From NCBI RefSeq assembly GCF_963676685.1, contig NC_092348.1:95728001-95792000 (forward strand): a DNA stretch of 64,000 bases, in the 5' to 3' direction. Source of the stretch: Mytilus edulis (Eukaryota). The position numbers and the translations under genes were made by a program. Under the pieces are notes generated by a model. That model made no database searches. It had not been told where the DNA came from and was given only the letters and a program-made list of their open reading frames with translations. The first letter of the stretch is position 1; every line of letters begins with the position of its first letter. Positions 16,496 to 43,704 of the stretch are shown here, one piece after another.

Positions 16496-19400
16496 TCACA
16501 GCTTGGATCCTTTACTTGAGAAAAATCCCATTATAGCATTCATACATTCATCCGACTGCCACCGTTCCATTAGTATAACACATTCGTGCTTGTTCACTTG
16601 ATATAATTTGTCTTTCTCCAGTTCTCTCGACACTAATTTGCATTTTTGTAAACTCTGAAATCAAAAAGTAAATGCTACTTTTATAACTGCTTACACAATT
16701 TTATTTAATCTATCTTTTTATGTTTATATAATTATGAGTAATGGTGGGTTCATGGTTTAAAAAGCCAATTTATTTCATCTAACAAGAATAATGATTAAAG
16801 TAGAAATGTTTATGAACACAAATAAGTAAACATAGTTAAATAAAAAATCAATAATTCTAGGAGCCTAGATTATTCTTTGATGGCCTTTATGTGTAATTCA
16901 GTCAATAAAATTAGCCAATTTTTATAATATTTTCAATTAGACAAAAATTCTTATAATTTTATGAGCATGTGAAGTGTTTACTAAAATACAGAAATTTGAA
17001 CCCTTATTTTATGTCATAACTTACTATTATTTATTCAGATTACAGAAATACCAATTAGGCATAGAAAATTACAAAATAAATCTAAAATGTGTCTCCATGG
17101 ACACAGATCATGATGCTCCTGCATTGCATACACCATTTTAAAGGGACACAACTCAAGAATGATAAAAGTGAGGCTACCCAAATTTGTACTTGAACTGAGT
17201 TTTGTGGTAATAAGTATTGTGTAAAAATTTCATAATGTTTGGTTGGGGCAAACTTATGTTACAGAACGGAAACTAAACATTTTGCAATTTTTCAAGTTAT
17301 AATGAGGCATAACTCGATAATGGTTAAAGTGACACTTCCCCAATTCAGCTTTATCTGCGTTTTGTGGTAATAAGTATTGTGCATAAGTTTTGTAAAATTT
17401 GGTTGAGGCAACTTAAGTCAGAGAACGGTTACTAAAAATTTTGCACCTATATCCTTTTATAAAGGGGCACAACTCGAGAATGGTTAAAGTGACCCCACCA
17501 AAATTCAAACTTGATCTGAGTTTTGTGGTAATAAGCATTGTGTATAAGTTTCATAACATTTGGTCGAGGCCAACTTAAGTTCGAGAGCCTCTAAAAATTT
17601 GTAATTTTTCCATTTATTAAGGGCATTACTCTAGAAAGGATTGAGTGATGCCACCGAATTCAAACTTGATCTGTAATTTGTGATAATAAATATTGTGCAT
17701 AAGTATCAACATTTGGTTGAGGCCAACTTAAGTTAGAGAATGAAAACTAAACATTTTGCATTTATTTCCATGTATAAAGGGGCATAACTCTAGAACGGTT
17801 AAAGTGACACCACCAAACTTCAAACTTGATCTGTATTTTGTGGTTATAAGCATTGTGTATAAGTTTCAGAACATTTGGGAGAGGCAAACTGAAGTTAGAG
17901 AAGAGAGGGAAACCCAAAAATGCAGCAATTTTCCATTATAAAGGGGCATAACTCTACAACGGTTATAGTGACACCACCAATTTTTAAATTTGATCTGTGT
18001 TTTGTGGTTATAAGTATTTTGTATAAGTTTCATAACATTTGGTAGAAGCTAACTCAAGTTAGAGAACAGAAACCGATTTTGGGATGTACCAACGTACGTA
18101 CATATGTATAGTCCGACAAGGGTAAAACTTAATGGCCCCTCTGCTATGGTGGGGGCACAAAAATGAAAAATGCTGGAAATCATATTTGCGACCTTCATAA
18201 CATGTAAGTATGACCATTGTGAGGATTTTTTTTATTTCAAAAACTGAACATTGATCAATGATCCATTATATGAAGTCAAGCTCTGATGAAATCTGCCAGA
18301 CAACACCTTGTAGTTATTCAAAAGGTGATCTACTGCTTCTAGTACTGAAGAAGCAAACCAAATCACAAAAGGTTAACCCTGACCATTTAACCTTGAAATG
18401 AAGTCAAGATCAGGTGACCTTCATCAGATGCACATATTGACCATGCAGGGATCCTATCAACCACACACAGTTATCCTTTTACTCTTAACAAGTGAGAAAT
18501 TAATGTGACAAAAAAACTATACATGTTTTTTAAGCAGTCTCTCATATGTTGTTTAGTTGTTTAGACATTTACATATGCTTCAAAACATCGATTTATTAAA
18601 TGTCATTTTTCATAAACTGTTGACACAGAGATATGTTTGAATGTCCACATAATATTCAGAACTAGAGGCTCTTAAGAAACTGTGTCGCTCACCTTGGTCT
18701 ATGTGCATATTAAACAAAGGACACAGATGGATTCATGACAAAATTGTGTTTTGGTGATGGTGATGTGTTTGTAGATCTTACTTTACTGAACATTCTTGCT
18801 TCTTACAATTATCTCAATTTATAATGAACCTGGCCCATTAGTTACAGAGGAAAATATTTTATTAAAATTTACAAAAATTTACAAAATTTACACAATTATT
18901 AAAAATTGACTATAAAGAGCAATAACTCCTTAAGGGGTCAACTGACCTTTTTGGTCATTTGACTTATTTGTGGATGTTACTTTGCTGAACATTATTGCTG
19001 TTTACAGTTTATATCTATCTATAATAATATTCAAGATAATAACCAAAAACAGCAAAATTTCCTTAAAAATTTCCAATTCAGAGGCAGCAACCCAACAACC
19101 AGTTGTCCGATTCATCTGAAAATTTCAGGGCAGATAGATCTTTACCTGATAAACAATTTTACCCCATCTCAGATTTGCCCTTAATGCTTTGGTTTCAGAG
19201 TTATAAGCCAAAATCTACATTTTACCCCTATGTTCTATTTTTAGCTGGGTCACGCCACATATTTTTTAAACAAGATACCCCAATGATGATTGTGGCCAAG
19301 TTTGGTTTAATTTGGCCCAGTAGTTTCAGAGGAGAAGATTTTTGTAAAAGCTAACCCTGGACGACAATGACGACGCCGGAGGACGCCGGACCCAAAGTGA

Positions 19401-22400
19401 TGAGAAAAGCTCACTTGGCCCAAGGGCCAAGTGAGCTAAAAAACAATCTGATGAACAACAACATTGCTCATCAATTCAAAGTCACTGGACCTTTTGGGCA
19501 GGGCCTAGAAGTGGTCGACAAATTGATATCTTCTGATAGTAATGCAACTTTATAAAAATATCACAATTGGATCCTATTAAACCAACTGAATCAGAAAATT
19601 TAACATTGAAAATTGCTTATTAATTCAAAGTCACTGGACCATGCCTAAGGGAGCAGGGTCTCAAAATAGTCATTAAACTGATATGTATTGATAGTTATGC
19701 AATTTCCCATCAAATAAGTATGATCTATCACAAGTAGTTCCTACCAAAATAACTCAAGCAGAAAACTTAACTCTTAATGATGCCACTGCTGTCTGCAAAA
19801 AGCTATTTCTATGTTTCGCTTTCCGCGACATTCATTCCAGGCTGGACAACTAAAAGGGGCATAACTCAAGAATGATAAAAGTGACGCTACCAAAATTCAA
19901 ACTTAATATGTGTTTTGTGGTAATAAGCATTCTGTGTAGATTTTATACCATTTGGTAATAAGCATTCTGTGTAGATTTTATACCATTTGGTAATAAGCAT
20001 TCTGTGTAGATTTTATACCATTTGGTAATAAGCATTCTGTGTAGATTTTATACCATTTGGTAATAAGCATTCTGTGTAGATTTTATACCATTTGGTAATA
20101 AGCATTCTGTGTAGATTTTATACCATTTGGTAATAAGCATTCTGTGTAGATTTTATACCATTTAGTTGTGGCAAACTGAAGAAATAGAATCCCACGGAAA
20201 CAAAAGATTCCTCAATTATTCAAATTGTAAAGGGGCATAACTCTAAAACAGTGAATGTGATGCTACAAAAATTCAAACTTGATCTTCGTTTTGTGGTAAT
20301 AAGCATTGCATATATATATGAGTTTCTTCATTTGGGTGAGGAAAACAAAAATAAGAGAACAAATACCAATTTTGATGTACTGATGGAAGTACAGACAGAC
20401 AAAGGTAAACTTTAAAGCTCCCTTCACTACGGTGGGAGCATGAAAATAAGGGTTCCCTATCTTTTTACAAAAAACTTATACTCTAGGTCAGTAACTTGGA
20501 GCTTTAAAGGACACTAACAAATGATTCAATTAGTAAACAAGTAATTTCAGATGTGGAATTGCAAAGAGGATTCAGTTGAGTTTCAAAACACCTTACTCAA
20601 CATCAGAAATTAAATATATTTTCAAGGATTTTTTTTTCAAATTTCAAGGGCAATTTTAGACTTGGAATAACTGAAATAATAATTCTAGTCTTTTTTCAAA
20701 TTTTCAAAGTAGGGTATGAATATTGCCAACTATTTGTCCATATATAACTTACTATTTTGGGCAGCTTTGCATATTGCTGTACTCTTGCTTCTGTTTCTCT
20801 CTGGAATACATCATTAGGGAAGACTTCACTCACAAGATTTCTATCACACGCCTCCTGAGCAGTAATCTTCTTGTTAAACAATAACATTTCACTAGCCTGA
20901 AAATAAAAGAGTGTTTCTTACTGACATTCCTTTATCTAAAATTAATATACAAGTATAATAAACTATAGGTATAGAAAACATTTTCAAAATATAATTCTTT
21001 TGAAAAAAGAGCCATATTGGACTTCATCAGATCAAATAAACAAAATATAAAAAAACTTCTGACAAAAACTTTTCTTGTTTTGCTTGATTTCGTTATATTT
21101 TATTCTTGATAATAAAAATCAAATACAATTTCCCTTTCCTCTGACAGTTAAACATCTTATTAACGAAATAGAAGTCAACAGATGGTAAAAAATGTATCTT
21201 TCATAAGTCAACTTTCCTGTGTTTTGTCTGTATATTTTGTCTAAAATTTGTGTGTTTATGCTATTTAGTATTTTACATGTTAACTATCATTTTGTGTTTG
21301 TATACTGTCAGTGTGAGAAAAAAATCAACAGTGAATAATATAAAATTGTTTTCTGTGTTATATTAGAATTGAATAGAATATGAATTTTATCTTAACCAAG
21401 GTCAAGTTTTTCTTAATCAATGTTACTTCCTGTCAAATCAGTTTTAATCTACCAAAAACATGGTACTCGTTTTCTTTACAGATTTAACTAAATAGTTTAA
21501 TTTTCTGTAGCTTCATTTATAAAACATTTATTGATTATCTCCCTTTATGAAACAAGGATGTAAAATTTGAATCTATAATACATTTCATTTTTGTGTAAAA
21601 CAACAAAAGATTAAATTGCTATTACATGGCAGAATGTATAAGTTGATGGGCAATGAAACTGCAAATGATTTAACAGTATAACATGAACCGATTTAACAGT
21701 TAGAACATGCCAACAGGAAGCCTGATTACAAGTTTTGAAAATATTTGATTTGTAGATCCTTAGAAAATTGTGACCAAAATTTCACATTTTTTGGAATAAG
21801 GAATTAAATTTATATACACATATTTACCTTAGCTGTTCCCATTAACTTTGGGAATACATAGGATGAGCAGCCCTCTGGTGATTGTCCTAGCTGTGAGAAT
21901 GGAGTGTGAAATGTGGCCTAAAATTATATACAAAACCAGTTGTACATTCTTGCTCGGAAAGTTTTTGTTTCAATTAGATCTGAGTTTGCGTCTTTGTTGT
22001 TTAGCCTGAAGTTATCTTAAATAAGATTTGATTCTGTTTGATTTAAAATAAACAGAATACATGGATGATACATATTAAACTAGAGAAAGCTAGAAAAAAC
22101 TTACATGTCAGCAAGTGCCAGACAAAGAGACTGATGCATATAAAGCAAATGCTCATAAATAGTCAATTTTGACACCAGAAATTGATCCAGGATGTGTTTT
22201 CCATTAATATTGTATATCTTTTGTTAAAATCCAAGCACTAGGACTAGTATTTTGAAAGGTATCGTTTGTAAATGGTGGGCAACCAATAATTATGACACAG
22301 AGAACCTTTTACATTAAATATGATTATTACAATTTATCATTTTTCAAGAAATACTAAGTTTTTAACACAATTTTGACTAGAGTACACAATTTGAAATGCA

Positions 22401-25400
22401 TATGAATATCAGTTTTTGTTAAAATCCTATTGAAAGAAGATTTTCTTTCTCAGAATTTATGATTTTTTTTAATAAAAAACAAAGCTTTTCCAAAACTTAA
22501 ATAGATTGTTTCACCTCAATATAGTATGACATTAATATATTATGCACAACATTTAGAGTAAAATTTCCTACCTATACATTTGTAGTTTTTGCATTTACGA
22601 AAATGTTTGGTAAGGGACAGTTAACTATAGTGCTCCCGTTCCCAGATGCAGGGTCCTTATAACTATCTAATAATCAATAATCCCCCCTCCGTTACAATGG
22701 GGGCATAAAAAAGGTAGGAAATTGTAAAATTTAACTTATAAATTATTTAGTGTGATCAATAAAATAAATCTTCCCACACTATACTTTCAATGGCAAAGGG
22801 GAATGTGTTAAAGAGACCATAACCGGAACAAAGAGTAGAAAACAGCCAAAGGCCACCTATGGGTAAAGCATGGTTTAGTCCTACCTTATCTGAAGCATAC
22901 ACAACATCAAAAAGTCCCAAGACAGTAACAGAAACACCCACTGCTGGTCCATTGATTAGTCCAATTAATGGCTTAGGGAAGTCTATAAAAGCATTCACAA
23001 ATTTCCTGGAAAAATAACATACATATCACTTAGAAACAGTGTAACATAACTTAGGAATTAAAAAGGGTAGTGGTTTTCATTTAACTAGACGAAAAGATGC
23101 TCTACAATATTAAACAATATACTTTGTTACCATTTTTTTCTAATTTTAAAATTAAACAAATCATTAGTCATATTTTAAATAAATTATAAAGTCTTCATAC
23201 AAACCTATAGAAAAATTTGTCATTCATTGAACATTTAAATTCATGGTTCACCTGTACCTATGAAATCCACAAAAATTGGTATCCAACAAAAAATGATGAA
23301 TTCACACTACTTTTACATTTTTGAATGAATTTCTTACTACATCTGTACAAGGAATGATATTCCATTTTAGTTAATCAAGCTGCCATTTTCTCAAATCGAA
23401 ACCTACTCTAATATGTCGCCTCCTTGTTTCGCCATAGCTCCAATGCCATCTGATGGGATGTTCATGAAGTTACTTAAATCATTGCCACTACAATAATAAT
23501 CGCCGGCACCTACAACATAAAATACACAATGTTTAAACATGTGGTTTATCAAAATATATTAAACTGGTAGAAAACTCTTTTAAATGCATAATAAATAAGA
23601 AAAAAATAATTCTACCTCTGCATTAAGTGTGATGCGATATTTCCCCTCTCCAGACAGTTACAATTTCGTGGCTTGCCAAGCTTTTTAAATATTTGAAATT
23701 GAACTGATGAGAGTGGAGAAATTTTGTATTGTACAATAATTCATGATAGAATCAGTTTCTCCAATCGAATGATTTTTATATGATATTTAGGCAAACTTAT
23801 TCACTGATCAGCAAAAAGATGTGTTGTTTATATGTGCATCATAAGGCATGGTCATCTTTTTCATGGCCTCCAAATAGAATTTTCAGTGAACAGCAAGAAA
23901 ATTTTATATCATTATTAAATATTACCAAATAAGAATGGAGTTCAAACGAAACATACTTTGATTAGAAATATTACAACTGTTAATATATATACATTTTGTA
24001 TTACTAGTCACTTACAGTTGATCCTGATCCAGTCTGACTGAATATAGAATTACTGTAGACAAAAAGAAAAATATTTATACCTGTCAAAACAGCTAATGTA
24101 CAGTTTTTATCGTTTGCTGCTTCGGACAAAGCAAGGCCTACTTCTTCATACATCTGTTAATATAATCAATGTTTGTTAATGTCATGATTTAAAAAAAATA
24201 GTTTCTTGTGTAAGGCTGTTACCTTATAACATATGGTGCCACAGAATTTGTTTCTATTGAAATATCTCTTAAAATTTATGTTATTCTTCCATTATCCTGT
24301 GTTGTAGTTAAGGATGTTAATATAAGCTTTAAATGGGAATGTCTAAATGACATGAATCAGTCTCATCAGTTATAAAATATCATTTGCCCTGAGTAATGGT
24401 AGCTATTCCTCTAAGGCTGAAAGAGCTGATCCATAATAATACTGGAAGGCATCACCATGGCACCATTTCATCAGTATATTGTCCTAACAGACCATGTTAC
24501 TGAAGAGTAATAGGTGATAATTGAAGGAATGAATGAATGGATGAATTAGTGTTGTTCCATTTACAGTACTGATGACCATGGCAGACTGAGTCTCTAGATA
24601 AGACTAATGGTGGTTCAAACTGAATTTGGTATCAGAGAAAGTCTTACAAAAAGTTTTGTGGTTAACAAATGAAATGTAAACAAAAAGTGGTTGAAATAGA
24701 TAAAGATCACATGAAGTTTTTTTTATATCAACTAAGAAAGGATTAAATGTATGCTTTATTGTTTATGTTCAGACAATTTTGTCACTGCTTTAATGGAGTG
24801 CTACTTAAGTTAAGTTAAACTTAACCTTATAATTGATGGCATTTTTCTTTGCTGGTCTGTTCAGTGTAATTTTAAAGATACCATCATTCAATGTAACAGC
24901 GACAGTTTCATACTTTCCAGCTGATTCTGTAGAAGACACTGATGCTTGAGATGGACTATCTTCACCTGCCAAGCTATGTACTAAATCTATATAGGCCTTC
25001 TGTGCTTCATCCTGTGTAACATTATAGTATCATTAAATTTTATTGTAATAGCATTATTCTGGAAATGAATGAATCAATTAACTATTTTTAATTTTGGTTT
25101 TCCAACTTTTTTGATTCATGCAATACTGATGAGTCTTATGAAAAGAAACAGATGTCCAACATTCTAAATCAAAAGCCATCTTGGATGAACATTTATATCA
25201 TTAAAGACTTCCATTAAAAATATTAAACAGCTGGGTCAATGTTCGCAATTGTTTCTCCATAGGCGATAATGGTAACGTTTTCTACTGTTGCTCAGTCCAT
25301 ATCGTTAACTTGTGTATGATGGCTCGTTTCAAAGCCGAGACATTTTCACATATGTGGTTAAATTTTAAGGGTAAGAAGTGAAATTACTTTTATCGTAAAT

Positions 25401-28400
25401 TATCAAACCCTGAGAATCCTTTTGTGATGCGGCTCCTCATGGAAAAACATCTCTTTTTAAACACAATAGGTTCTTTGAAAATTTAATACTTTGAACACAT
25501 TTAAAAGCTCCATAGTTTTAACACATTTATTCTATGTTCCCCTACTTTCTAAATCAACACAAATAGTTAAGCTCAATCACTTGTTTATCATAGAAACGTG
25601 TCAAATATCACTACACAGAGATTTTTTGTTTACACACAACTTTTGAGTTCCTCATTTTGAGGTGCATTAGGGATATTGACCTAGCTATTTTCTCTCCGAC
25701 AATAATACCAGTATCATTGCCTTTCGAACGTTTATAACTACCATAGTGATTGTCGTTTGTTGCTGTATTACATATTTGTTTTTCGTTTATTTTTGTATAC
25801 ATTAATTAGGCCGTTAATTTTCTGGTTTAAATTGTTTTGCATTTGTGATTTCTGGGCCTTTTATAGCTGACTATGAGATATGGGCTTTGCTCATTGTTGA
25901 ATGCAAAACAGTGACATATAGCTGTTCATTTCTGTGTCATTTGGTCTCTTCTGGACAGTTGTCTCATCCACTATCATACCACATCTTCTTTTTATATATA
26001 CAGCTGATTTTTTCACTTCAATCTTACCTGTGTCATATCACTCAGATTGTTCCATGCATCCCATTTAGCTTTACCAACAAAATCCATCATGCCTGGTTTT
26101 TTAACATTACACTTTCCTATTGTTGCCTTATAGAAAAAGAAAAAAAGAAATAATTTTAATTGATGTACATGTATTACTATAAAAGGATGTGTAATAGATT
26201 AAAACACTTGACATTAAAAAACTGCTAAAATAGATAAATATATTTATTTATGGAAGTACACAGCCCTCTACTTGAGTTATATAAATTCTGACAAAGTTAG
26301 TTGACAAACGTGTTTCTTTTCTGTATACCATTACCAAGTTTTAAATGAAGTTTACAAGTTCAGTTTAACAAGCTTTACAGTAGACACAACAAACTTATAC
26401 AGTGGGTTTTTTATTTCATTTTTCTTGTACTGGGTTGTGATAAGATATGACATATGACAACAACTGTTGGATGAGATGAGGTTCCTGACTTGGTAGTCAG
26501 TGTTTCCATATTGACTTGATTTATAACAGATATGTACTTCAGCTATAAATTTCTCCATTGATAATGTTTCATTTGCATGTGTGTATCATCTTGTCCACCC
26601 AAAAACCACTTATCATCATGAATGTTAATTGGAACAAATATGCTAAGCAATTGAGAACATGAATTCAAATTTAGTTAACCCTTTTTTACTAGGTTGACTG
26701 TTTCTTACATTTGGATTGAGACAAAGTTGAACTTACATGGGTTAGGCTAACTTACATGGGTTAGGCTAACTTACATGATGGGTTAGGCAAACTTACATGG
26801 GTGAGGCTAACTTACATGGGTGAGGCTAACTTACATGGGTTAGGCTAACTTACATGGTTTAGGCTAACTTACATGGGTGAGGCCAACTTACATGGGTGAG
26901 GCCAACATACATGGGTGAGGCTAACTTACATGGGTGAGGCTAACTTACATGGGTGAGGCTAACTTACATGGATTAGGCTAACTTACATGGGTTAGGCCAA
27001 CTTACATGGGTGAGGCTAACTTACATGGGTGAGGCTAACTTATATGGGTGAGGCTAACTTACATGGGTTAGGCTAACTTACATGGGTTAGGCTAACTAAC
27101 ATGAGTTAGGCTAACTTACATGGGTTAGGCTAGAACTTACATGGGTTAGGCTAAAACTTACATGGGTTAGGCTAACTTACATAGGTGAGGCTAACTTACA
27201 TGGATGAGGCTAACTTACATGGGTTAGGCTAACTTACATGGGTTAGGCTAACTTACATGGGTTAGGCTAACTTACATGGGTTAAGCTAACTTACAAGGGT
27301 GAGGCTTACTTACATGGGTGAGGTTAACTTACATGGGTTAGGCTATTCTTTTTAGGTCCTTTTTAGTCATACCGATAAATTTTAAAGCAAACATTTATTA
27401 GAACATGTCAATATCACTGCATGTCGACCAACAGGCTCTGATGCTATGATCATTAGCTTAGTATTCAGTGCTTCACATATGATTTATAACTTACCTTATC
27501 TAAAACAGTTGAATAATTAACAAAATTTTAAGAAACAGAGGTTCAAACTTCCTCATGCAAAGTTAACCTTACCTGGATTTGCTTAATCTTTTTAGGTCCT
27601 TTTCCGTCATATAACTCATCGAGTAAAGTAATTGTACATCCTTGGCTTTAACAAATTTTTGGTTTACGCATTATTAATGTCAGAATGAATATAATAACAA
27701 GAATGTGTTCATAGTACATGGAAGCTCCACTCATACTATCATTTCCTATGTGGATCGTGAAATTGAGGTCAAAACACTAATTTGGCATTTAAATTAGAAA
27801 GATCATATCATAGGGAACATGTGTACCGGTACTAAGTTTCAAGTTGATAGGACTTCAACTTTATCAAAAACTACTTTGACCAAAAACTTTAACTTAAAGC
27901 AGGGCAGATAGACAAAACCAACGGACCAACAAACAAACAGACGCATAGACTGAAAAATAAATAATGCCCCTAAGTGATGCATAAAAAGTACTTTGGACGC
28001 AAAAAATTTATGAAGCGTTATTTTCATTTTTAAGAGGACACCAATGTCCCATTAAGACAAATTGAAGAAAGATTTATGCTGCCTGGATGTAGATCTGCCT
28101 ATGAATTAATTATTTTACCTCTCTCCCTTGTTCACTTACCTGTTTAAATAAAGCATAAATTGTTAGTTTGACATCATTGCCAGGTTCATTCTGGAGAGTG
28201 TTCAATTGAACTTTTGCTTTCTCAAACTCTGCATCCATAGCCCCTAGGACTGGCCTTGATCTATGAAATCCTCTTGTTGGCATAAAATGTACACTACAAG
28301 AAAATGGTTTAATTTAAGAATCAATATTTTATCTGTTGTTTTCTATAACATCTACCATTAAAATGTAAATTTCAAAATATATATAATCGACAAAAAGTCA

Positions 28401-31400: not shown

Positions 31401-32416
31401 TACTGACAAGAGGTTATCTCAGTACATAGAACCTCCAGTTATGGTAAAAGATCCTTTAGATTTGAGGCAGCACAAGTATGGAACTCACTTCCTAATGAGG
31501 CTCGACTCATGACTTCTTTTGACCAGTTTAGGAATTATATAAATTCCTGGTGTGGGGGTCAAAAATGTTACTGCAGTTCATGTCGTTTCCACCCAGTGCT
31601 GTCTCAAAGCTGAAATTTCTTTCTTTCTTTTTATAATGGCCTTTTGCTCTGCTTTTTATGCATTTTTATGCATTTTTTTTTTTTTTAATATATCTGCCAT
31701 TAAATGCTAGTGCTTATATTTATTTATTTATTGTTTTCATGCTTTTAGTCTGTTATATTTTATGATCCCAAGTGATTTGCTGATTCCCCCGTTTCAATGC
31801 ACATAGAGGCGCTTGCCACATGAACTTTGACTCTGGAGACTCACAAATCAAATAGAGTTGCTTTCATTATATTGCATGTTTTTTTAGTTTTATTTGGTAG
31901 TATTTGCATGATGCTGCATGTTTTTTATGTGATAGTCGGTTAAAGAGCTCACCAGAGCTCATGTTTTCTCTGTTATTGTGTATATATATGCCGACTCTAA
32001 ATAAAATTTACTTACTTACTTACTTACTTACTTACATGTACCTCACTATACTTCAAGTACTTGTCACTGTCAGTATTAACTTTATACCAATCAGGTTCAA
32101 AATATAAATCAATAATCAGTTTGCAAGTCAAAAATTTATATTTCCTTTGTCGTTATATGAAGATAAATCGGTGTTATAACATAAGGTCTTAACCTTCCTT
32201 TATACCTGGTGAGAAAGTGGACTTTGATCAGAAACTGAGAAAGAGTAAACTTTTTCAATAGTAACATGTAGTTGAAAAGGGTTATGAAACTTAAGATTAT
32301 AATTCTTATAAAAATAATTGTGATGTACTCATAAAAGTCTTATCATTTCCTCATTAAACTAACTTCTTGAAGGTGAAAATATGATTTTGAAAAGTCCTCC
32401 TTATGGAGGCAGCCAT
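16496..32416 (-). CDS. ECI2: Enoyl-CoA delta isomerase 2 (ACBP + crotonase domains), 10 exons, 393 aa
   Basis: GT-AG exons, all phase-consistent: 32364-32416, 28140-28293, 26028-26126, 24826-25011, 24081-24153, 23407-23509, 22885-23005, 21828-21917, 20753-20896, 16496-16654 (1182 nt). ACBP motifs [12 protein letters not shown] and GKAKWDAW. Crotonase motifs [41 protein letters not shown]-terminal SKL. AATAAA about 25 nt after the stop. Confidence 0.95.
17085..18162 (+). mobile_element. Helentron/HINE-like element with about 6 internal tandem units of about 160 bp
   Basis: Repeated aaggggcataactc...aaacttgatctg..ttttgtggtaataagcattgtgtataagtttc. 3' hairpin gcccctctgctatggtgggggc plus A tract. 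Related copies at 19855-20447 and, reversed, about 33280-33568. Confidence 0.65.
18661..19443 (+). mobile_element. Non-autonomous Helentron-type element
   Basis: Starts actagaggctc...gtcgctcacc and ends with a perfect hairpin agctcacttggcccaagggccaagtgagct followed by A tract. Confidence 0.7.
19919..20163. repeat. 35-bp minisatellite, 7 identical copies, inside a Helentron-like unit
   Basis: Unit ggtaataagcattctgtgtagattttataccattt. Confidence 0.95.
26730..27344. repeat. 19-bp minisatellite, about 32 copies, in ECI2 intron 2
   Basis: Unit aacttacatgggt(t/g)aggct. Confidence 0.95.
28447..30412. mobile_element. Non-autonomous DNA transposon, PIF/Harbinger-like
   Basis: Imperfect TIRs of about 40 bp (ggcttaaattaaaatattgtttgtttgcagtttac / aaaactgcaaacaaacatatttttaaggttggcc) with a 3-bp TGA duplication at 28444-28446 and 30413-30415. 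Confidence 0.7.
31428..32036 (+). mobile_element. 5'-truncated LINE (CR1/L2-group-like): ORF2 C-terminus, 3' UTR and (TTAC)n tail
   Basis: 31428-31613 translates [26 protein letters not shown]...CYCSSCR...*, a typical LINE ORF2 end. AATAAA followed by (ttac)n at about 32000-32036. Confidence 0.75.
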
Positions 32417-32453
32417 TTTCAAACAACCGCGCCACCTATCGACCATAATCCCA
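32417..32453. promoter_or_regulatory. 37-bp spacer between the divergent ECI2 and CDYL start codons; core of a putative bidirectional promoter
   Basis: CAT at 32414-32416 and ATG at 32454-32456 each splice in frame to a downstream exon. Start contexts are GAAAATGGCTGCC (minus) and CCAATGGCGG (plus), resembling YY1/TISU-type motifs. Confidence 0.75.
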
Positions 32454-35400
32454 ATGGCGGAAAACGAAGTTTACGAGGTAAAAAAAAACCTGAGATCTTT
32501 ATAAACAACCAATTTTGGAACGCATATGACAAGTTAAGGAGATAGATATGTTTTCTACATGATCAATTTAAAGCAAGACTAGTAAATCTGCATAAAGATT
32601 TTTTTTCTTTTTATGTTTCAGCTGTCAGTTTTGAAAAAGGTTCATCCAATTACCTAAAATAAACCGGTAGCTACACCAGTCTTATGTAACATTATTTACT
32701 TAGAGATAAAGTTTTGTATGAATATTAGAAGAAAAAATAAGGCTTTAAAAAATTTTGTTTTTAGAACTTCTAATTATCCTGTAACTTCTTCATATTTTAG
32801 TCTAATAATTATCTTTTATGAACAAGTTGCTAATTATTTTTTATATCAAATAAATTTGTAAGTTAACAGAATATCCCTTATTCTGTTATTTGATAGTTGT
32901 GTCATTATATGAATTTTGTCATGAAATGACCTTAGATCCGTCTCTGAAGAATTGTCATTTAAAATGTATCGATACCTTATTAAAAAAAAGAAATGGTATG
33001 AATGGTATGGAAAATTTTGCGGGAATATTTTTATTTTATTAGTGAATAATTTTTATCAATAAAATTTTGAAATTTATGTTCTATTTAACCTTTGAAATTT
33101 CTTTATAAAAGTACATCATTTATGTACATGTAAATCAATAAAAGAGCTTCAACGCATAAACTCACATGTTTTCATTTATTCTTCAAATGTATTGTTATAA
33201 TTTTTAACCTTCTATGAAATAACTGAATTTTTTCCTGATAAATATCATGTATTTGATGGTTCTGCGATCCCAAATATTTTTATGCTCCTGGCTGCTGTAG
33301 CAGAGGGGGTGCATTCAGTTTTACCCTTGTCCCTCCGTTGGTTTCTGTACTCTAACTTCTAACTCTTGTACATTAGCCACAACCAACTGTTATGAAATTT
33401 GATTGCTGATTAATATTTCAAAAAAAAGATCAAGTTGTTTTTTTAGGGGGTGTCACTTTTATTGTTCTAGAGTGGTTCTAAAGTTCCTCTTTACACATAG
33501 AAAATTTGTTGATTTTTTTTCGTTTATGATATCTGACGTTAGTTTGCCTCAACCAAATGCTATGAAACCGGTACCTCGAATGACCGAATAACACTGTTAA
33601 TATGCGAATAACACTTTTGTGACGGAATAACACTTGAAATATTAATATTAGCACATATTTGTGACTTTTAAACATTGATTATTAAATAATAATATATTAT
33701 CGATGTATTTTATAACTAAAAATTGATTTACAGAAAGCAGATAAGTTCATCAAGATCTTTTTAAATTTAGTATGTGCATCCAACATGGTGACCACGGAAA
33801 TCAAAATGGCCGCCATGTTGGAAACCTTCAATTTCTGGGTTATGTATGTTAAAATGTTCTATGTTCCGATATATGCGTGAGATGTCTGTCATTGGACATT
33901 ATCCAAATATCATCATCCTATGCATGTATTGTTACAAGACGGGGGTGTTATAAAAGTAACGGTATTTTTACAAAGTTAACACACTGGTTACTATATTCTG
34001 GGTAAATTCTACTATAGAGCTGTCAACTCTGGTGTCGAGTTACAAACTAAGTTATACTGGTAGCGTAGCTGGCAAAATGGTCAAAGCACTGGTCTAAATA
34101 AGGTAGCTCAGCCTCAGAAACTTATTAACATTGACTTACTTACTTCATGTACAACAGATAACAACATCAAATTAAGCTTTACAATTTATTATATACAAAA
34201 CATTCAATACTATAACAAGCATAAACCACATAAAAACCCACCAGAGCACTTAATAAAATATACAGAGACCCCCCTTTTTGGTAAGTTATTCGTTTGTCAA
34301 CAACGTAGTAAAAACGTATTTGGTTTGCTCTGGTAATTTCTTTGGTATCAGGAGTGACTGCCCTGGTAGCGGCCTGCAGGCCATCTGAAGACTGTTGTGC
34401 ACTCGCTTTTATACATCTGTCCCACCAACGTCTCGTGCCCCTATGGAGAAATTACGTTATGCTAATTGGATGCTGATCTCAGGTCATTAGGTCAATGACG
34501 TCAATAAAAAATAGTGATGCAAATGGCGCCGATCGAAACGTTGACACTCTGTCGAGTCAGGAAATGGACAAACGGAACTTATCTAAGCTTACTCTAAGCA
34601 TGTATGGGCCCCGGTTACAATATTCATGACTGCCTTACACTAATAAGATAACAAGGTACAAATGTAATAAAGGGGTAAAGTGTGAAATAAGGGAAACCAG
34701 AAGGTGGGAACAGTTGTTCAGTCAGGGGACCCCCATGGTCGAACAGTGAAGACGAACTCTATATTATTATTCCCAGAGACCTTACTAACAATATTTACAT
34801 CCAATTACAATATATAAGTCTTCACAATGTTCATCAAATGTCTGTATACGAGTTGGCTAACAGTAAACGAAGAACGTGAAAATACTCTTTTGTTCCGACG
34901 TTGGAAAGTTCCAGGCGGAAAGAACTAGCTAGCCGAAAAGTTCCGGAGGAACTTATTAACTAGTTACTTTGTTCAAAGTGACAAGTTGAAAAGTTCCAAC
35001 GTAACATATCAACTAGTTAGAAAGTTCCTATTTCCCAAATTAGTCAAAACCGGAACTAACAAACTAGCCCAAAAGTTCCAACGGAACTTATCAACCCGTC
35101 ACAAAGTTCCATTTGGAGAATTGATGCAAAGTAAAAGCACAACATATTATATTAGAACCTTTCAAAGGGGAACCAAGATACTGATTACAAAAGTCAAAAG
35201 GAACTAGTCACAAAGTTCCTCTTTGACAAATTAGTCAAAACCGGAACTAACAAACTAGCCCAAAAGTTCCTCCTCATTTGGATACTTTTAAAAATATCAA
35301 TTTCAGATTAATGTATAACAATAAATTAGAACTTTTTCCGTTATTAAGGCAACATTCTGACCGAATAAACTAGTTTTTCTGTTCCACCAGAACTATTCAA

Positions 35401-38400
35401 CTAGCTACATTGTTCCGGGACTTTTCAACTAGCTACTTTTTTCAGGAACTTTTTGACTGCACTCGGAATAAAACAACTAGTTGGAAAGTTCCATCGTAAC
35501 AAAATAACTAGTTGAAAAGTTCCGCCAGAACAAAGTAACTGACGGAACATAGCGGCTGTTACATGTTTACTGAGTATATATGTATAGCCCGAAAGAGTCG
35601 TATGTACAAACCTACAGCTTACTCCCTACACTGTAACAGTATCATACTTTACTTACACAAAACTATGATTTTTCCAAGAAAATTGACAATAATAATTGCA
35701 GTAACTTGACTATATCATGTTTATTATATATTCAATTTTCTAATTTTAGCTCTGGTATTAATTAAATTGTTTTAAATCGGAAAATACATTTAGGGCTAAA
35801 TATAAATTATTGATTTTTTAGGTGGAAAACATATTGGAACAGAGAGAGGTTGATGGACAACTGCAGTTTTTTGTCAAGTGGAAGAATTTCAATGAAGACT
35901 GGAATACCTGGGAACCAGTAGACAATTTGTTGGATTGTTTTAACTTAATCCTTGAATTTCAGGAAAAGCAACATGATACTGTTACTACCAAAACAAATGT
36001 TGAAAAGTCAAAACTGGCTAGAAAAGAGGCATTAAAGATTGTGAAGAAAGCCAAGAGATTGAACTCTGGTAGTGATAATATTAAGAAAGCTTTACTGAAG
36101 CATGCAGCTATTGTTAAAAATGAGGATGTTAGCCTTAACCTATCAGTGGACACAAGCGTGCTTACTTCTACCCCATTTAAGAAGTCACCTAAATCACCTA
36201 AGTCACCTAAATCACCTAAGTCACCAAAATCACCAACACAATCACCAAAATGTTCACCTAAACCCAGAAAGTTGGAAGAAGGGGTATCAACACCTATTAC
36301 TACAACTAAAAGGACTCCAAAGAAACCTTCCAAACTTGAAGAGTATTTTGATCCATCAAAAATGTTTATTAAAAGTTCTAGTAAAATATTGTCAAATGGT
36401 GTTCAGAGTTCAAAGGTTAACTCTCCAAGTGTTTTAAGAACTTTACTTACCACTAGCCTCCCTGTTCCTACGAAACAAAGTAAAATTAACAGTCCTTGTA
36501 TGCATGCTAGTGTAAAACTGAAGAAATGCACAGTGAGTTCAGTGACATTAAACAGTAGCAAAACCACAGATGCATTGCAAAGTGACAAAGAAAGTGACCA
36601 AATAACTCAGAATAAATCTGATAACTCTCAGAGTAGTACAAAAATAAAAAGAAAATACACAAAAAGATCAGATCAGGAATTACTGGGAGGAAATAAAAAG
36701 AAAACCTCTAAAGTTGGAAACAAAACTAAAAGTACAAGTTTGAAGAATAATCTTAAGAAATCGCTAGGAGGTAAAACTTTAAAAACATCAGATAAAAACT
36801 TTAAAATGAAGAAAACAGGGAATTTGTTGGTAGTTAAAATGAGACCAGCTATCAAAAAGGAAAAGAAAAGTGAATTAAGTGCTTCAAGTCAGAGCGAGTG
36901 TTCTGAAGCTGAAACAAAAGATATAACTTTACAAGATATGAATAACAGTGCTGCACAGGAAAAAGTCCACACAGAGATTCAGGCTTCTCAAGGAGAGAAG
37001 AAAATTGTGAAGAAAAAAATTATATCATTGAAAGTAAAGAAAGAAAAGTTAAACAAAGAAGGCAAAAAGAAAGAGAAAAAAATCAAAACAAAAGATCAGG
37101 CAGATGGGAAAAAAATAAAGAAACAAAATATGAATGAAGGGAAAAAAGTGAAAGTGAAAAAGAAAAACAAAGAAGATGGGAAGAAAGAAATAAAAGTAAA
37201 AGGAGTAAAGAGGAAGTTGGAAGATTGTATTGAAATCATAGACACTGAGTCTGATGATGATGTTCAAGTCAAATTTTCTTTATCTCCAAAATCTAAGAAA
37301 GCTAAAACTGACAATTCACCAAAAAGACCAGAAAATGAGAAAAAGATGGAGAGTCCTAGCAAGATAATAAAAGAAATGGGTAAAAAGACTCTGCAGGTGA
37401 AAGTTCGTCCAATGGAAACGACATCATCCAATATAAAGAAGATGAGATTAATTGATGCAGTAAAACCTCACCCTGGAGTCTCAAAATCAGGTACATGTAC
37501 AGTAAAACCTCACTCTGGTGTCTCAAAAATCAGGTACAGTAAAACCTCGCCATAGTCTCAAAATTAGGCACAATTATAAAAACTCCCTGAAGTCTCAAAA
37601 TCAGGTACAGTAAAACCTCACCCTAGAGTCTCATAATCAGGCACAGTGAAAACTCTCCCTGGAGTCTCAAAATCAGGTACAGTAAAACCTCACCCTGGAG
37701 TCTTAAAATTAGGTTCAGCAAAACCTCACTCTGGAGTCTCAAAATCAGGTACAGTAAAACCTCACCCTGAGGTCTTAAAATCAGGTACAGTAAAACCTCA
37801 CCCTGGAGTCTCAAAATCAGGCACAGTAAAACCTCATCCTGGAGTCTCAAAATCAGGTATACAACCTTTTTGTATCAAGTTGATACATACAGCTGACATA
37901 TAGATTCTGTTAAAATAAGTAAAAGATGTTTCGACAATGTTTTTCCTTATAATTAGATGTACATATCTTAGAGTCATGATAGAACTTATTAGGAGAGTCA
38001 TTTGAATGGCTTTAATATCCATGATCCTGATGATGAAACATTTCAAATTTTTATCATATTGATAACACAACTAAGGCTCATACATTTAGAGCATTCTAAA
38101 GGAATATAAAAAAAAATACAAAAAGATTTATGCTGCTTTCTTATATCTGATGCTGAATTGCACCAAGCTGTTGGAAATATTGTCATGATATTTACATCAT
38201 AGTCTAGCATTTTGTTTTTCTGTACTTTCTAAATAATTTTGTTATGCTTGCAGATATTAGCTGATCTTTAGGATTTTTGTTTTCTTTTTCTTAATATATT
38301 TTAAACTTTATTATTTTATATTTACAGCAATTGTTCGACCAGTATCACCAACTCCTGTGTTCACATCAGTCAAGCCTATAATGTCTACTACACATGCTCG

Positions 38401-41400
38401 ACCCATGGTTGCCATGGATGCACTTTGTGCAGATGTACCTGCAGGGTATCACTATGTACCCGCTATGATTCCTATCAGTCCTTCATCAATGTCATACAAA
38501 ATGTTACTTGATAGTCTCCCTTTCCAGTTTCACACGAAGAAGTCCAGCAAGAAACGAGAAGAAGAAATGGTGCGTGAAGATGATGTGGAACGGAGAATGA
38601 GTGTTAGACAAAGTGAATGTGCCTACCGATATAAAGAGATTGTTGTGAAGAAGTGTAACCGATATACACAGATCTGGTTAAATACACATTCAAAGTTAAA
38701 AAATTGTCTTAATCCTCAGGTAAATATATTTCTTTAAATTGGTATAAGAGGAGTTTGGTGGTAGATGAAGATATTTTTTATTCTTAATAGCTCTCATCAT
38801 TTCTTTCCACATACTAAATCTTTTTCTTACGGAATAGAATTTGTTAATTTTTCCCGCATTTCTGAATAAATGTCAATGTATTACATCATAATGTTGTATT
38901 AGTTATGTATTGTTGCTTTTATTTAATACCATCAATAATACATAATTTTTCATCTGTATTATATTGATGTAGACTTTGAAATTGACCGCATATGTTGCCA
39001 GCAATCTAATACGCATATGTTATATAAAAATAAGGAGATGGGATATGGTTTCCAATGAGATAACTACCCACCAAAGTTCAAATGAAGGTGATGTGAGCAG
39101 TTGTAGGCAGTCATACAGCCTTTATGTATGAATGTCTTGTTCTATGTTTTAGGTAATACAAGAAGTAGTGTCAGCTTTGAACTCAGCGAAGTATGACGAT
39201 AGTAATCTAGTCATGTTCAGTGGTCTAGGGAATGTGTTCTGCAGTGGTATCGATCTCACTTACTTGATCTCAAATTCAATGGATAGGAAAATGGCAGCAA
39301 GAAAAATGGTGGATGCTCTCAGGTAAACATAATCATAGCCACATATGAATAAAAAGGATGTGCCTCACCCTGTATTATTTGTCTCTGTTTATTGTCCTTT
39401 CACTTTACTAATTTACTTGAACGTTTAATCAAACTAAATATAAACTCATCTCTACAAACTGAGCAATTGGTAAAATATTTCATTTCATTGATTAAGTGAA
39501 AGGTAATCATTATGAAGTAGATGCAGTGAAATAAAAGGTATTCTTAATCTTAGCACATAATTTCGAAGTTTGTCTGAAGATTGTGCAGAGTTATGGTCCT
39601 TGGACTTAACTGAAGTCACTTAAATAATCAGTTTTTAACTATTCTTTCGTCATGCTTGAAGATATTGACTTGATATTTGATATATAGTTGACACCATGAC
39701 AAGTTGTAGATCAAGTTAAAATTTTGTTCCAAAACAGTGAATTTTTAACCAGTAGGGACTATGTATTGCCATGCAATACTCACAGTATGCTTGTTACTAA
39801 AATGTATTAGTTATTTGCCTAAAATTTTCTTTTAGGGATTTTATGAAAGCTCTCATCACATTTCCCAAACCTTTGATAGCTGTAGTGACGGGATCTGCTA
39901 TAGGTCTTGGGATGACCATGCTCCCGCTATGTGACATAGTCTACGCCAGCGATAAAGCTTCATTCCATTTACCATACTCGCAGCTGTCACAAACACCAGA
40001 AGGATGTGCGTCATTTCTCTTACCTACCACAGTTGGAATGGCCATGGTTAGTATTGTTTACAGTTACATACAAGAAGATACTTTATAAAAACTGAATGTT
40101 GTTACAGAAAAAATTTAACTAATAATTGGTGTTTATCAGTATTCACTGATGTTCCAATAAAATATGTACCATACTGAGAGGAGGCACTTTTAAATTGTTG
40201 CAATAATCGCTCAATCACAATTTCAAAATTTTTATTTTCTTCTGTTTGTGTTTTTTTATGAACTGCATCTTTAGAAAATATGCATGATTGATGTGTATCA
40301 AAAGTGTTTAAATTTGACGTTCTTGATATCTTGAATGTAATGCTAAAATATTCCCATTATTATAGGCTAATGAATTACTGATTGGAGGACGGAAGATCAC
40401 AGCTATTGAGGCGTGTCAACTTGGTCTGGTATCACAGGTGTTCTGGCCTACCAGTATCATGCAAGAAGTCATACCTAGAATAGAAAACATGGCCCTACAG
40501 TCAGGCAAGGTAAACAAAATATGTGCTTCTTTAGGGAGGGTCAACTGTGTAGGTGAAAACACTGTTTTTACACATGATAAGCTGAATAACAACTCATATA
40601 TAAATTTTAAAAAAATACTATGGAAAATTGCTCAAGTATGCCACCAATTTGAACTATTTTGGAATATTATAGGAAAATCAAATATAAAGTTTTTGAATTG
40701 AAAAAATACTGAAAAATGGAAATTTTTATTTTCCAGTTGCATACATTTATCTAAGCTTTTAGAATATAATAAAACCCAATTTAAGTTAAAAGAAATAGTA
40801 TTGTTTTGCTGTACATAACTACCACTTTTCTAAAAAAAAAAAAAAAGTATTTATTTTTATTGAAAAATCTTAATTTTTCATTTGTCACAATAAACAACCA
40901 TGGTTTTGAGAGTTATTTCCCCTTCCAAACATACTTCTTTAGATCAGAAAAATAATTCCTGTCTCATTTCATTGTATCAGTGTAGAAAAAGAAGAAGATT
41001 GAACATGTTATGCAATATTGACAAATCTGATGTATAAGAAAGAAATAAATGTTTGTCTTTTCAAAACAAATCAACGAGTTAAAAATCATCAATTACATTT
41101 TAAAAACACTAACCATAGAAAAAGCCACTTCAGAGCATCATTCTGGTGGCAGACTCTGTACTAAGGAGAAATCTCAATCTTTAGTACTTGATGTAATTGA
41201 TGATTTTTAAATCGTTGATTTATAGCAGATCATTGATATGGACTTATAATACAATCTTTCTTTTCAGGCTTTAGAGACAACCAAACTATTGATTCGAAGT
41301 CACCAGAGAACAAAAATAGAACTAACCAATGAATCGGAGTGTAATCTGTTATTGGAGAGATGGCCATCAACAGAATGTCAGAAGGCAATAGAGAATTATC

Positions 41401-41429
41401 TTAACAATGATAACAACTTCTGTATATGA
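32454..41429 (+). CDS. CDYL: Chromodomain Y-like protein (chromodomain, long Lys/Ser-rich linker, crotonase-like domain), 7 exons, 923 aa
   Basis: Exons 32454-32477 (MAENEVYE), 35822-37490, 38328-38719, 39153-39322, 39836-40046, 40366-40509, 41268-41429 (2772 nt), all phase-consistent. Chromodomain YEVENI...FFVKWKNF...NTWEP. CDY-family segment VRQSECAYRYKEIVVKK. Crotonase motifs FCSGIDL, FPKPLIAVV, QTPEGC. Confidence 0.9.
33570..35562. mobile_element. Transposon fragment in CDYL intron 1 with subterminal aactagt..aaaagttcc arrays, ending TGTTACA
   Basis: Higher GC than the flanks. Many direct and inverted aaagttcc/ggaacttt motifs in 34895-35550. Only one terminus is recognisable. Confidence 0.4.
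37459..37860 (+). repeat. 36-bp tandem repeat (about 11 copies) across the CDYL exon 2 / intron 2 junction
   Basis: Unit gtaaaacctcaccctggagtctcaaaatcaggtaca (VKPHPGVSKSGT). Confidence 0.92.
41068..41221. mobile_element. MITE-like inverted repeat in the last CDYL intron
   Basis: aaatcaacgagttaaaaatcatcaattacat ... atgtaattgatgatttttaaatcgttgattt. Confidence 0.65.
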
Positions 41430-43704
41430 AGATTCTTGTGTTTAGTATCATATTCAATTGTACATGTATTAAGAAGTTGTGTAACAATTTACAGAAAAGG
41501 GGAGGCCATCATCATATTGATTATATTGATGGATTATGTCCCTTCTCTTAGGAATTCAATCTGACAAAAGCTATGGAATAGCTGTCTACGATAAAAGTCC
41601 TTGTCTCATCTTTACTGCTTTCACTGCATAATGAAGTTACCATGCATTTGTCTAACATGTTCCTATAACTTCTGGAAGTTTGAGTTGACTTTTATTGTAA
41701 ATAAGAACAATGCAATGAACAATTAAGTTCTGTATTTGTACATATCATTTAACACCCTTTTTTTATCAAACAGGTTCAAATGAACTTTTCTGTATATACA
41801 TGTTTTTTTTAATTCTTATTCCAGAAAAACAAATTCCTGATCAAATTTTCTTCAATCATTTAAAGTTATTTCAATAATTATTTTCCTTCTATAATGTAAG
41901 AATTGTTCAGAAATATCTAGTCTGAAGTGAATGGCTGAAATGCTTTGATGAAGAATAAAAGCAGAGTTGTGTTTATTATAATGAGTTTTTTTGGGTTTGT
42001 GTATAGAATATAAATGATGTTTACAGTCATGAAATATTTCTTTTTATATATGAAATTGTGTTCATTACATGAACCTATAAGTTCATACAGAAGCTCATTT
42101 GTTGACCTACATTTGCATTTATAAGAATTGTTGACTTTCATATAGAATTTAAAAAAAAACTAATCTAACTCTTAAAAGATAAACCAGCTAAGATTGGAAT
42201 TGATAACAATTTAAGGCCCATGATGAATAAAGCACTACATTCCCACTAAATATTTTTCTGAAATTTCCTTTGACCTCTTAATGATTGAAATGAGATGTTT
42301 GATATATGGCAATGAGGCGGCAACACAACAATATAATGCAGCAAAAATCATATAAAGGACATATCTGTTTCTGTAAAGGAAATAAATATTTCACTGTTGA
42401 AAATATGAGATGATAAATTAAATACCTTAAAACCAAGATGTCGTAGGATTGTTTTAGCTTTATATGTTGATCATAAAATCATTTTTGTAATATTTTTGTC
42501 TCACACTTAAAAAGTAATAGACCTCCAATTCAGTATTGTATAGATAAGTGTAAATTTGTTATATTCCCCAATAATAGGGTATGGTATTTCTTTTGTCCTA
42601 TTTTTTCACACTGCCAAAATTGAATTTAAGTTATTGTTAAAAATGAAATTTGTTGTAATTAATTAACATTATTTGTTATTCTGCACTATGAATAGAAAAA
42701 GTGTTTGTAAATATAGAATGTCAAAAAAGGTAGTGATTTAAATAGGTTGACTTTAAACTGCCATTGTTTAGTATAGTAATAGTTCCTATAATTACACTAG
42801 TTACTTGTACTACACTGTGTCAGTGTATTCAGTTTTTTTAAATTTGTTTAAGTAAACTAGTCATTCTGGGCATTTTGTTTTATTTTTAATCATGTTTTGC
42901 AAACTTTCCTTTATTAGTTATCAGAGAGTTTTTCACAGCAAATTCTACACACCAAAGCACTGAACTTTTCAGGTTTCTTAAATACAAACTACCACCACCA
43001 GAAGTGTTCTTAAATTTTCCAGAATCTTGCAATAATTGCAGGTGTAAAATGAATAAAATAACTGTATGAATGAGTAGGAACAGGGTACCACAACAAAAGA
43101 TGAGATTCATGTCATTATGTGTATACTTTCATTCAAGTCATAATAAACAAAATCAGAAATTTATGCATCAGATTTTAAAATTTATTTGTCAATATTATTT
43201 TGATTTAAAGTTTAGTTATAAGACAAACAGTACCGATTCATTTTTATAGATTTTTTTCTTTGATTTGATACAATTATTAGAAATTTGTGTTTACTGTAGA
43301 CATTTTAATTTTTATTGAGATTGCCCCCACATATTTTTCAGATGTATGACATACCGGTACATTCAGTGTTGTCATCTGTAAAATAAAATGTCCTTGTTTG
43401 GTGCACTGATATCTAACTTGTTGAATAAAATGATTCTTCCGTTCTGGCTTATTATATAAGGAAAAGACTGTAGCCTATGTCATAGTAGACACATTAGCAC
43501 ATCTGACATTATTTTCCGATTCTCAGTTTATTTTTAAGATTCCTCCATAAGTGTTCATTGTAAGTATTTCACTTGTCAGTCATCTTTATTTATTGTCATA
43601 ATGTGTAGTTTTAGTTATTTATGGATCTGTGTATTGTATTTTTTCCTTATTTAATCTGTAATAAAATGGAAAACATAACTCAGTTGGTTAACTACTGTCA
43701 ATAG

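Follow-up and report, generated by a model that had tools for sequence, protein, structure and literature searches.

Mammalian CDYL has been reported as a crotonyl-CoA hydratase (reviewed in PMC13374299), and a claim of acetyltransferase activity was not reproduced (PMC6408431). Germline knockout of Cdyl left global histone crotonylation unchanged (PMC6408431), and both the enzyme status of CDYL and the reaction it might catalyse are disputed. All assayed and solved members of the family that we found are vertebrate proteins carrying an aspartate at the position considered below. In the crotonase fold, canonical hydration requires two glutamates, Glu144 and Glu164, and a backbone oxyanion hole at Ala98 and Gly141; the isomerases employ one glutamate, located at the position of either Glu164 or Gly172 (PMC13126182). 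In Drosophila, HIPP1 is described as a CDYL homolog, and its residues I732, L780 and E812, which are invariant in drosophilids, were matched to L403, L452 and D483 of CDYL (PMC6385973, 10.1101/661041, PMC6911044). Its authors infer a functional crotonase domain, the null mutants are viable and fertile (PMC6385973), and the domain provides a surface for binding to itself and to Su(Hw) (PMC6385973, PMC6911044). The accessible text of these three accounts contains neither an assay nor a contrast between Glu and Asp, nor a link to the catalytic base of ECI2. Prior discussion of the residue or of the origin of the family may be found in Wu 2009, Li 2007 and Dorus 2003.

The window analysed here, a stretch of 64,000 nucleotides of Mytilus edulis contig NC_092348.1, contains a CDYL gene of seven GT-AG exons on the plus strand (32454-41429), which encodes 923 amino acids without internal stops (Table 1). 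Splicing was followed in raw RNA runs bearing the same species label as the source genome. Five of the six introns were directly visible in reads, including those flanking exon 5 (39320>39834 and 40045>40365, both GT..AG, in 3/3 RNA-type runs). The intron between exons 2 and 3 was derived from one 3115-nt contig, in which 37 letters remain that no donor but the in-frame one at 37490 can accommodate; this single RNA-type contig covers exons 1-7, placing chromodomain and crotonase domain in one transcript. A tandem array of eleven 36-bp units (37458..37859, plus strand) takes in the last part of exon 2 together with the donor and contains six donor-like copies, the first of which is the one used in the contig; read-through would lead to a stop at 37553-37555. 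The linker also contains a 9-bp (Ser-Pro-Lys) repeat at 36182-36234, where one run shows a deletion of 18 bases that preserves the frame.

Table 1. Features of the CDYL and ECI2 genes in the window
Feature	Position	Strand	Remarks
ECI2 exons 2-10	16496..28293	-	ACBP and isomerase domains; complete protein 393 aa, ends SKL
ECI2 Glu278 codon	21873..21875	-	counterpart of CDYL Glu807
ECI2 exon 1, coding part	32364..32416	-	joint 28293>32364 CT..AC in 3/4 runs; basic, acid-free leader
Gap between start codons	32417..32453	.	37 bases; 5' ends of both transcripts here, touching or overlapping
CDYL exon 1	32454..32477	+	start codon and Tyr7, the first cage residue of the chromodomain; joint 32475>35820 GT..AG in 4/4 runs
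CDYL exon 2	35822..37490	+	remaining chromodomain (Trp28, Phe31), long Lys/Ser-Pro-rich linker; joined to exon 3 by the 3115-nt RNA-type contig
CDYL exon 3	38328..38719	+	linker ends and crotonase domain begins
CDYL exon 4	39153..39322	+	first oxyanion-hole loop: Ile728, CSGIDL at 39240-39257
CDYL exon 5	39836..40046	+	Leu776 (second oxyanion position), Thr779 and Tyr799 (where hydratases have their two Glu), Glu807
Glu807 codon GAA	39999..40001	+	ECI2-type catalytic position
CDYL exon 6	40366..40509	+	contains Ser845
CDYL exon 7	41268..41429	+	C-terminal helices, stop; without PTS1 ending

A frame or splicing artefact is excluded by the RNA joints, and a mis-assembly by a DNA contig that matches 39766-41800 with 0 differences as well as by the RNA-type contig linking the chromodomain to the crotonase exons. 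A second ECI2 copy is likewise excluded, since of 4 candidates in a search of the mussel's own genome only 3 matched, namely exon 5 and two exons of ECI2, and thus one match was of CDYL type. No read difference affects the Glu807 codon among the 40 of 72 differences listed. We have hardly any doubt that the gene is a real, expressed CDYL orthologue carrying the ancestral glutamate.

The protein combines a chromodomain (Pfam Chromo, E 2.5e-12) with a crotonase domain (Pfam ECH_1), and its cage residues Tyr7/Trp28/Phe31 compare with Y7/W29/Y32 in 10.1101/820647. The first-pass annotation had proposed a chromatin-tethered protein; the chromodomain and its cage make this plausible. By orthology only, mussel CDYL would be nuclear, bind methylated H3K9/H3K27, multimerise and act as a repressor.

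The neighbouring ECI2 gene comprises 10 exons on the minus strand, and over 393 aa its product matches an ECI2-like protein of Mytilus edulis at 100% identity. Its leader is likely a mitochondrial signal, and Pfam ACBP was matched on one exon with E 3.6e-05, below the curated cut-off. The two genes are arranged head-to-head, and both 5' exons are spliced in RNA. The 5' ends cluster near 32429-32438, with CDYL molecules at 32438 (19) and 32429 (8) and ECI2 pieces reaching 32431-32436. The database ECI2 protein starts 10 codons further up, which would reduce the gap to 7 bases, but the reads stop short of that start. Both start codons lie in contexts that we take to resemble the YY1/TISU short-leader motif. 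Further observations concern ECI2 and the remainder of the window. A database isoform (P0457) has an alternative N-terminus matching the minus-strand frame 32136-32339 within intron 1 (28294-32363), and the in-frame Met22 and Met37 could yield shorter leaderless forms ending in SKL. Two stretches of the same intron (28446-30451 and 30771-31408) collect numerous RNA reads from either strand, which show numerous differences, and are probably dispersed repeats transcribed elsewhere. Finally, two similar multi-C2H2 zinc-finger frames, likely paralogues, are also divergent (53318-55579, minus strand, and 60259-62628, plus strand).

The first-pass annotation had drawn attention to a glutamate in the CDYL motif SQTPEGCAS, and to its counterpart in the motif GQSPEGCSS of ECI2. 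Both are present, the former with its GAA codon on the plus strand and the latter with a GAG codon at 21875-21873 on the minus strand. The span 39836-40046 given for these features is exactly exon 5, but one of the segments assigned to it, CSGIDL, lies outside, in exon 4. The alignment with human ECI2, which had been suggested as a check, is ungapped across the glutamate in exon 5, and human ECI2 likewise carries Glu. The oxyanion-hole segments of mussel CDYL (CSGIDL from 39240 and GSAIGL from 39891, plus strand) align with those of ECI2 (CSGNDL at 23492 and GPAVGV at 22950, minus strand), and neither Ile728 nor Leu776 is a proline. The segments are alike, as had been pointed out; however, vertebrate CDYL is equally ECI2-like here, and since it shares the segments, their similarity was dropped as evidence for activity.

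The matched stretches of rat ECH and exon 5 are of equal length (query 9-67 and chain 126-184), and from these ranges we deduced a register in which Leu776 corresponds to Gly141, Thr779 to Glu144, Tyr799 to Glu164 and Glu807 to Gly172. The ECI2 proteins have Glu at the Gly172-type position in 36/36 cases, the two hydratase-Glu positions being occupied by Thr and Phe, which fits with the Gly172-type residue that we take to be the catalytic one in human ECI2. Both hydratase-Glu positions are non-acidic in all 184 proteins tallied, and mussel CDYL carries the single glutamate at the Gly172 position and not the pair at 144 and 164. As both hydratase glutamates are replaced, by Thr and Tyr, ECI2-type isomerase chemistry rather than hydration is predicted; at the level of sequence, the residue pattern of mussel CDYL is that of an ECI2-type isomerase, not of a hydratase. 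By our own residue count, Ser845 presumably corresponds to the CoA-binding Ser467 of the human protein.

The distribution of Glu807 was followed in two sets of proteins. The first was a tally of selected matches, from which most duplicate isoforms and unnamed invertebrate matches were dropped, whereas a small number of CDYL2-like rows without a name stayed in because of their similarity. Here, Glu was present in 32/32 molluscan, 6/6 other spiralian, 10/10 echinoderm or hemichordate and 2/2 amphioxus proteins, in one of three tunicate proteins, and in four of six from arthropods, where both Asp rows represent one thrips cluster. None of the vertebrate proteins had it: the two jawless proteins (hagfish and lamprey) and the 18 jawed-vertebrate CDYL proteins carry Asp, and the 73 CDYL2 proteins carry Ala (72) or Asp (1). 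The residues named in the first-pass annotation, Asp in human CDYL and Ala in CDYL2, agree with ungapped alignments to human CDYL (2GTR), CDY1 and CDY2, all with Asp, and with the jawed-vertebrate CDYL2 proteins, human CDYL2 itself not being among the matches. One parrot CDYL2 model (P0076) with Asp instead of Ala has an unrelated N-terminus with a dUTPase domain and looks like a chimeric gene model.

The second set resulted from a profile search without word filter, which listed 150 representatives at 50% identity, one of them without the domain; its clade labels rest on named anchors, most rows being unnamed. The vertebrate clade (n=25) comprised 17 Asp, 4 Ala, 1 Ser, 1 His and 2 gaps but no Glu, the non-vertebrate CDYL/HIPP1 proteins (n=97) 92 Glu, 4 Asp and 1 gap, and the ECI2-like outgroup (n=27) 26 Glu and 1 Asp. 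Outside vertebrates, Glu has also given way to Asp in a thrips, in a pair of Phallusia proteins and in one further protein without a name, and no non-acidic replacement was found among the 96 non-vertebrate representatives with a residue at this position. In a quick maximum-likelihood IQ-TREE run the CDYL/HIPP1 clade received an SH-aLRT value of 99 and the vertebrates 100, and in FastTree the CDYL/HIPP1 clade obtained 0.997; in both trees the mussel protein groups with CDYL, not with ECI2. Because Glu occurs in the outgroup, in protostomes and in invertebrate deuterostomes, it is ancestral, as had been proposed for the mussel protein, and conservation among invertebrate orthologs, on which that proposal depended, is borne out by the non-vertebrate representatives. 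In the simplest reading, Asp arose on the vertebrate stem and was followed by Ala in CDYL2, and a few lineages elsewhere acquired Asp independently. A mussel-specific trait is excluded by the presence of Glu in nearly all non-vertebrate CDYL relatives.

Within the non-vertebrate set (median pairwise identity 40%), Glu807 ranks as the 16th most conserved of 260 columns. Four columns are common to non-vertebrate CDYL and the ECI-like outgroup yet changed in vertebrates, and Glu807 is the only charged one. At the loop position of Lys689, a basic residue dominates in invertebrates and ECI2, whereas 90/91 jawed-vertebrate proteins have Asn. The two CDYL-clade proteins matched in amphioxus have diverged considerably from each other and both carry Glu; the two of Phallusia carry Asp, Ciona savignyi having Glu (these are among P0181, P0229, P0217 and P0271).

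Over the entire domain, mussel CDYL keeps 66 of the 103 columns conserved in animal ECI2 and differs at 37, with changes including Asn>Ile728, Arg>Thr684, Pro>Ser686, Tyr>Ile697, Phe>Tyr799 and Pro>Trp849. Counting consensus at 80%, invertebrate CDYL shares 51 of these columns with ECI2, vertebrate CDYL 56 and CDYL2 59; thus, as a whole the mussel domain is little closer to ECI2. The changes at 728, 799 and 849 are CDYL-wide and may reflect a reshaped pocket. Structure prediction, likewise suggested as a check, was covered by the AlphaFold model of a 94%-identical relative (P0002, pLDDT 92.9). This model is closest to CDY/CDYL (Z 38.5-39.3), followed by ECI2 (Z 35.8-36.8, rmsd 1.5-1.7), and mussel CDYL is accordingly predicted to adopt a crotonase fold like that of both. 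Crotonase-fold enzymes run many chemistries, and varied crotonase-fold entries were among the fold matches. The shared fold is no demonstration of function.

We consider it likely, with moderate confidence, that mussel CDYL is an ECI2-like catalyst on chromatin. The chromodomain would read methylated H3K9/H3K27 and hold the protein on methylated histones, and the backbone oxyanion hole made up by Ile728 and Leu776 would receive the thioester oxygen of a bound acyl-CoA. Glu807 could then shuttle a proton between C2 and C4, converting 3-enoyl-CoA to 2-enoyl-CoA, and this isomerisation might tune the local acyl-CoA supply for histone acylation, though we know of no nuclear supply of 3-enoyl-CoA. 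All four non-vertebrate exceptions to Glu807 are Asp and hence still acidic, which we count in favour of catalysis. Vertebrates, however, are equally strict, with Asp in 18/18 and Ala in 72/73 proteins, and conservation alone is therefore no proof of it. The viable and fertile HIPP1 nulls and the binding role of the HIPP1 domain also count against catalysis, as do the 37 departures from ECI2 and the closer fit of the model to CDY/CDYL.

Possible, if rather doubtful, is that the domain is a non-catalytic acyl-CoA binder serving as a scaffold for oligomers and co-repressors, with Glu807 kept for ligand binding or loop structure. Scaffold roles have been reported for CDYL and HIPP1 (PMC6385973, PMC6911044), vertebrates tolerate both Asp and Ala, and the 37 differences from ECI2 point in the same direction, as do the acidic columns Asp785, Glu894 and Glu699, which are equally or more conserved than Glu807. 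However, these three are also kept in vertebrates; Glu807 alone switches, it does so at the catalytic position, and in the 96 non-vertebrate representatives it is never exchanged for a non-acidic residue. It seems improbable that mussel CDYL is a crotonyl-CoA hydratase, as reported for the mammalian protein, with Glu807 as sole acid/base: the activity was reported for CDYL and proposed for HIPP1 (PMC13374299, PMC6385973, PMC6911044), and the serine matched to human Ser467 is kept, but canonical hydration needs a second glutamate (PMC13126182), neither position is acidic in any of the proteins tallied, and the Cdyl knockout did not alter global crotonylation (PMC6408431). Still less credible is that Glu807 catalyses another reaction or acts on another substrate (a branched or bulky acyl-CoA, or thioester hydrolysis), as the changes at the ECI2-invariant positions 728, 799 and 849 and the varied fold matches might suggest, because no candidate substrate is at hand and both tree and gene structure tie mussel CDYL directly to ECI2.

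With respect to the origin of the gene, all four introns in the CDYL crotonase domain match those of ECI2 in place and phase, ECI2 having two more, and the two neighbouring proteins are 39% identical (101/257). Judged by eye from database records of named matches, CDYL and ECI2 lie on one scaffold in 20 of the 21 invertebrate species with both named, namely molluscs, a brachiopod, a nemertean, two crinoids and amphioxus; only Solemya deviates, its partial ECI2 being located on a contig of 27 kb. As chromosome-scale linkage is common, a shared chromosome is weak evidence, and four short scaffolds (344 kb, 619 kb, 1.9 Mb and 2.4 Mb) provide the stronger cases. Moreover, the genes are numbered consecutively by locus tag in Sinanodonta and by accession in Lingula, and their accessions are spaced by 12 in Anneissia. 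The wider spacing in Lineus, Antedon and amphioxus (about 200-1400) and the non-adjacent tags in Tegillarca and Pinctada do not bear out adjacency in these species. ECI2 and CDYL are also listed consecutively at human 6p25 (PMC7479479), and on pig chromosome 7 a distance of 400 kb separates them in which no other gene is listed (PMC11639466). The intron match, the head-to-head layout, known from the Mytilus window alone, and the shared scaffolds therefore point to a local duplication of ECI2 as the origin of CDYL. Eighty loci from a metagenome scan for animal contigs with both genes looked mostly microbial by identity and unbroken matches and were left unused. None of the representatives was named as a non-bilaterian CDYL (20 unnamed ones were looked up, of which 14 had names), and 'bilaterian' thus stands for a minimum age. 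In the accessible literature searched, an origin of CDYL from ECI2 was not found, and none of the seven papers naming both genes treats, by title, their evolution; the pair may be listed in the microsynteny survey PMC3514665.

Tentatively, these lines can be combined into one account. By the time of the bilaterian ancestor at least, before the protostome/deuterostome split, CDYL would have been born as an inverted duplicate of ECI2 whose acyl-CoA-binding (ACBP) part was exchanged for a histone reader, the chromodomain. It would still reside beside its parent, with a shared promoter in mussels, and work as a chromatin-bound enoyl-CoA isomerase in invertebrates. Vertebrates would later have weakened or lost the base, so that their CDYL would be a weakened and their CDYL2 a dead descendant, with the hydratase activity that has been reported being a by-product.

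The mussel protein is an ancestral variant of a known family; many molluscan proteins already bear the annotation 'chromodomain Y-like', and the accessible HIPP1 accounts partly anticipate the glutamate, there only as the equivalent of Asp483 of CDYL. Its main value is that of a clean test case for the disputed enzymology and the origin of CDYL. With the glutamate of the parent enzyme and an intact chromodomain, invertebrate CDYL is a natural protein to assay, and Glu, Asp and Ala offer a ready-made natural series. If active, it would place a fatty-acid enzyme on chromatin since early animals; if inactive, the family would be an old acyl-CoA-binding scaffold. In either case, the link to ECI2 offers a concrete origin for the gene.

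Compared with the described systems, mussel CDYL is nearest to vertebrate CDYL, CDYL2 and CDY (2GTR, 2FBM, 2FW2), with which it shares the clade, the combination of chromodomain and crotonase domain, the oxyanion segments and the chromodomain cage; vertebrate CDYL/CDY also provides the best PDB sequence match (E 2e-73) as well as the best fold match to the P0002 model. It differs from them in Glu as opposed to Asp (CDYL, CDY) or Ala (CDYL2), in the basic Lys689 loop and in a much longer linker (923 aa as compared with about 500-600 in the vertebrate family). Drosophila HIPP1 has E812 at the position of CDYL D483, as mussel CDYL has Glu807, but lacks a functional chromodomain (PMC6385973), whereas the mussel protein has both parts. 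Arthropod homologs fall into the same clade, fly HIPP1 itself not being among the matches, and no chromodomain was detected in the two scanned with Pfam. With ECI2/PECI (2F6Q, 4U18) mussel CDYL has in common the single Glu at the Gly172-equivalent position and the four introns, but it carries a chromodomain instead of ACBP and departs from ECI2 at the 37 columns mentioned above. Inspection of the sequence and Pfam revealed no ACBP domain, no mitochondrial-type leader and no peroxisomal SKL ending, and mussel CDYL is therefore not an ECI2, whatever its chemistry. Finally, ECHS1/crotonase resembles it in the predicted fold and the putative backbone oxyanion hole, but has Glu144 and Glu164 where mussel CDYL has the non-acidic Thr779 and Tyr799.
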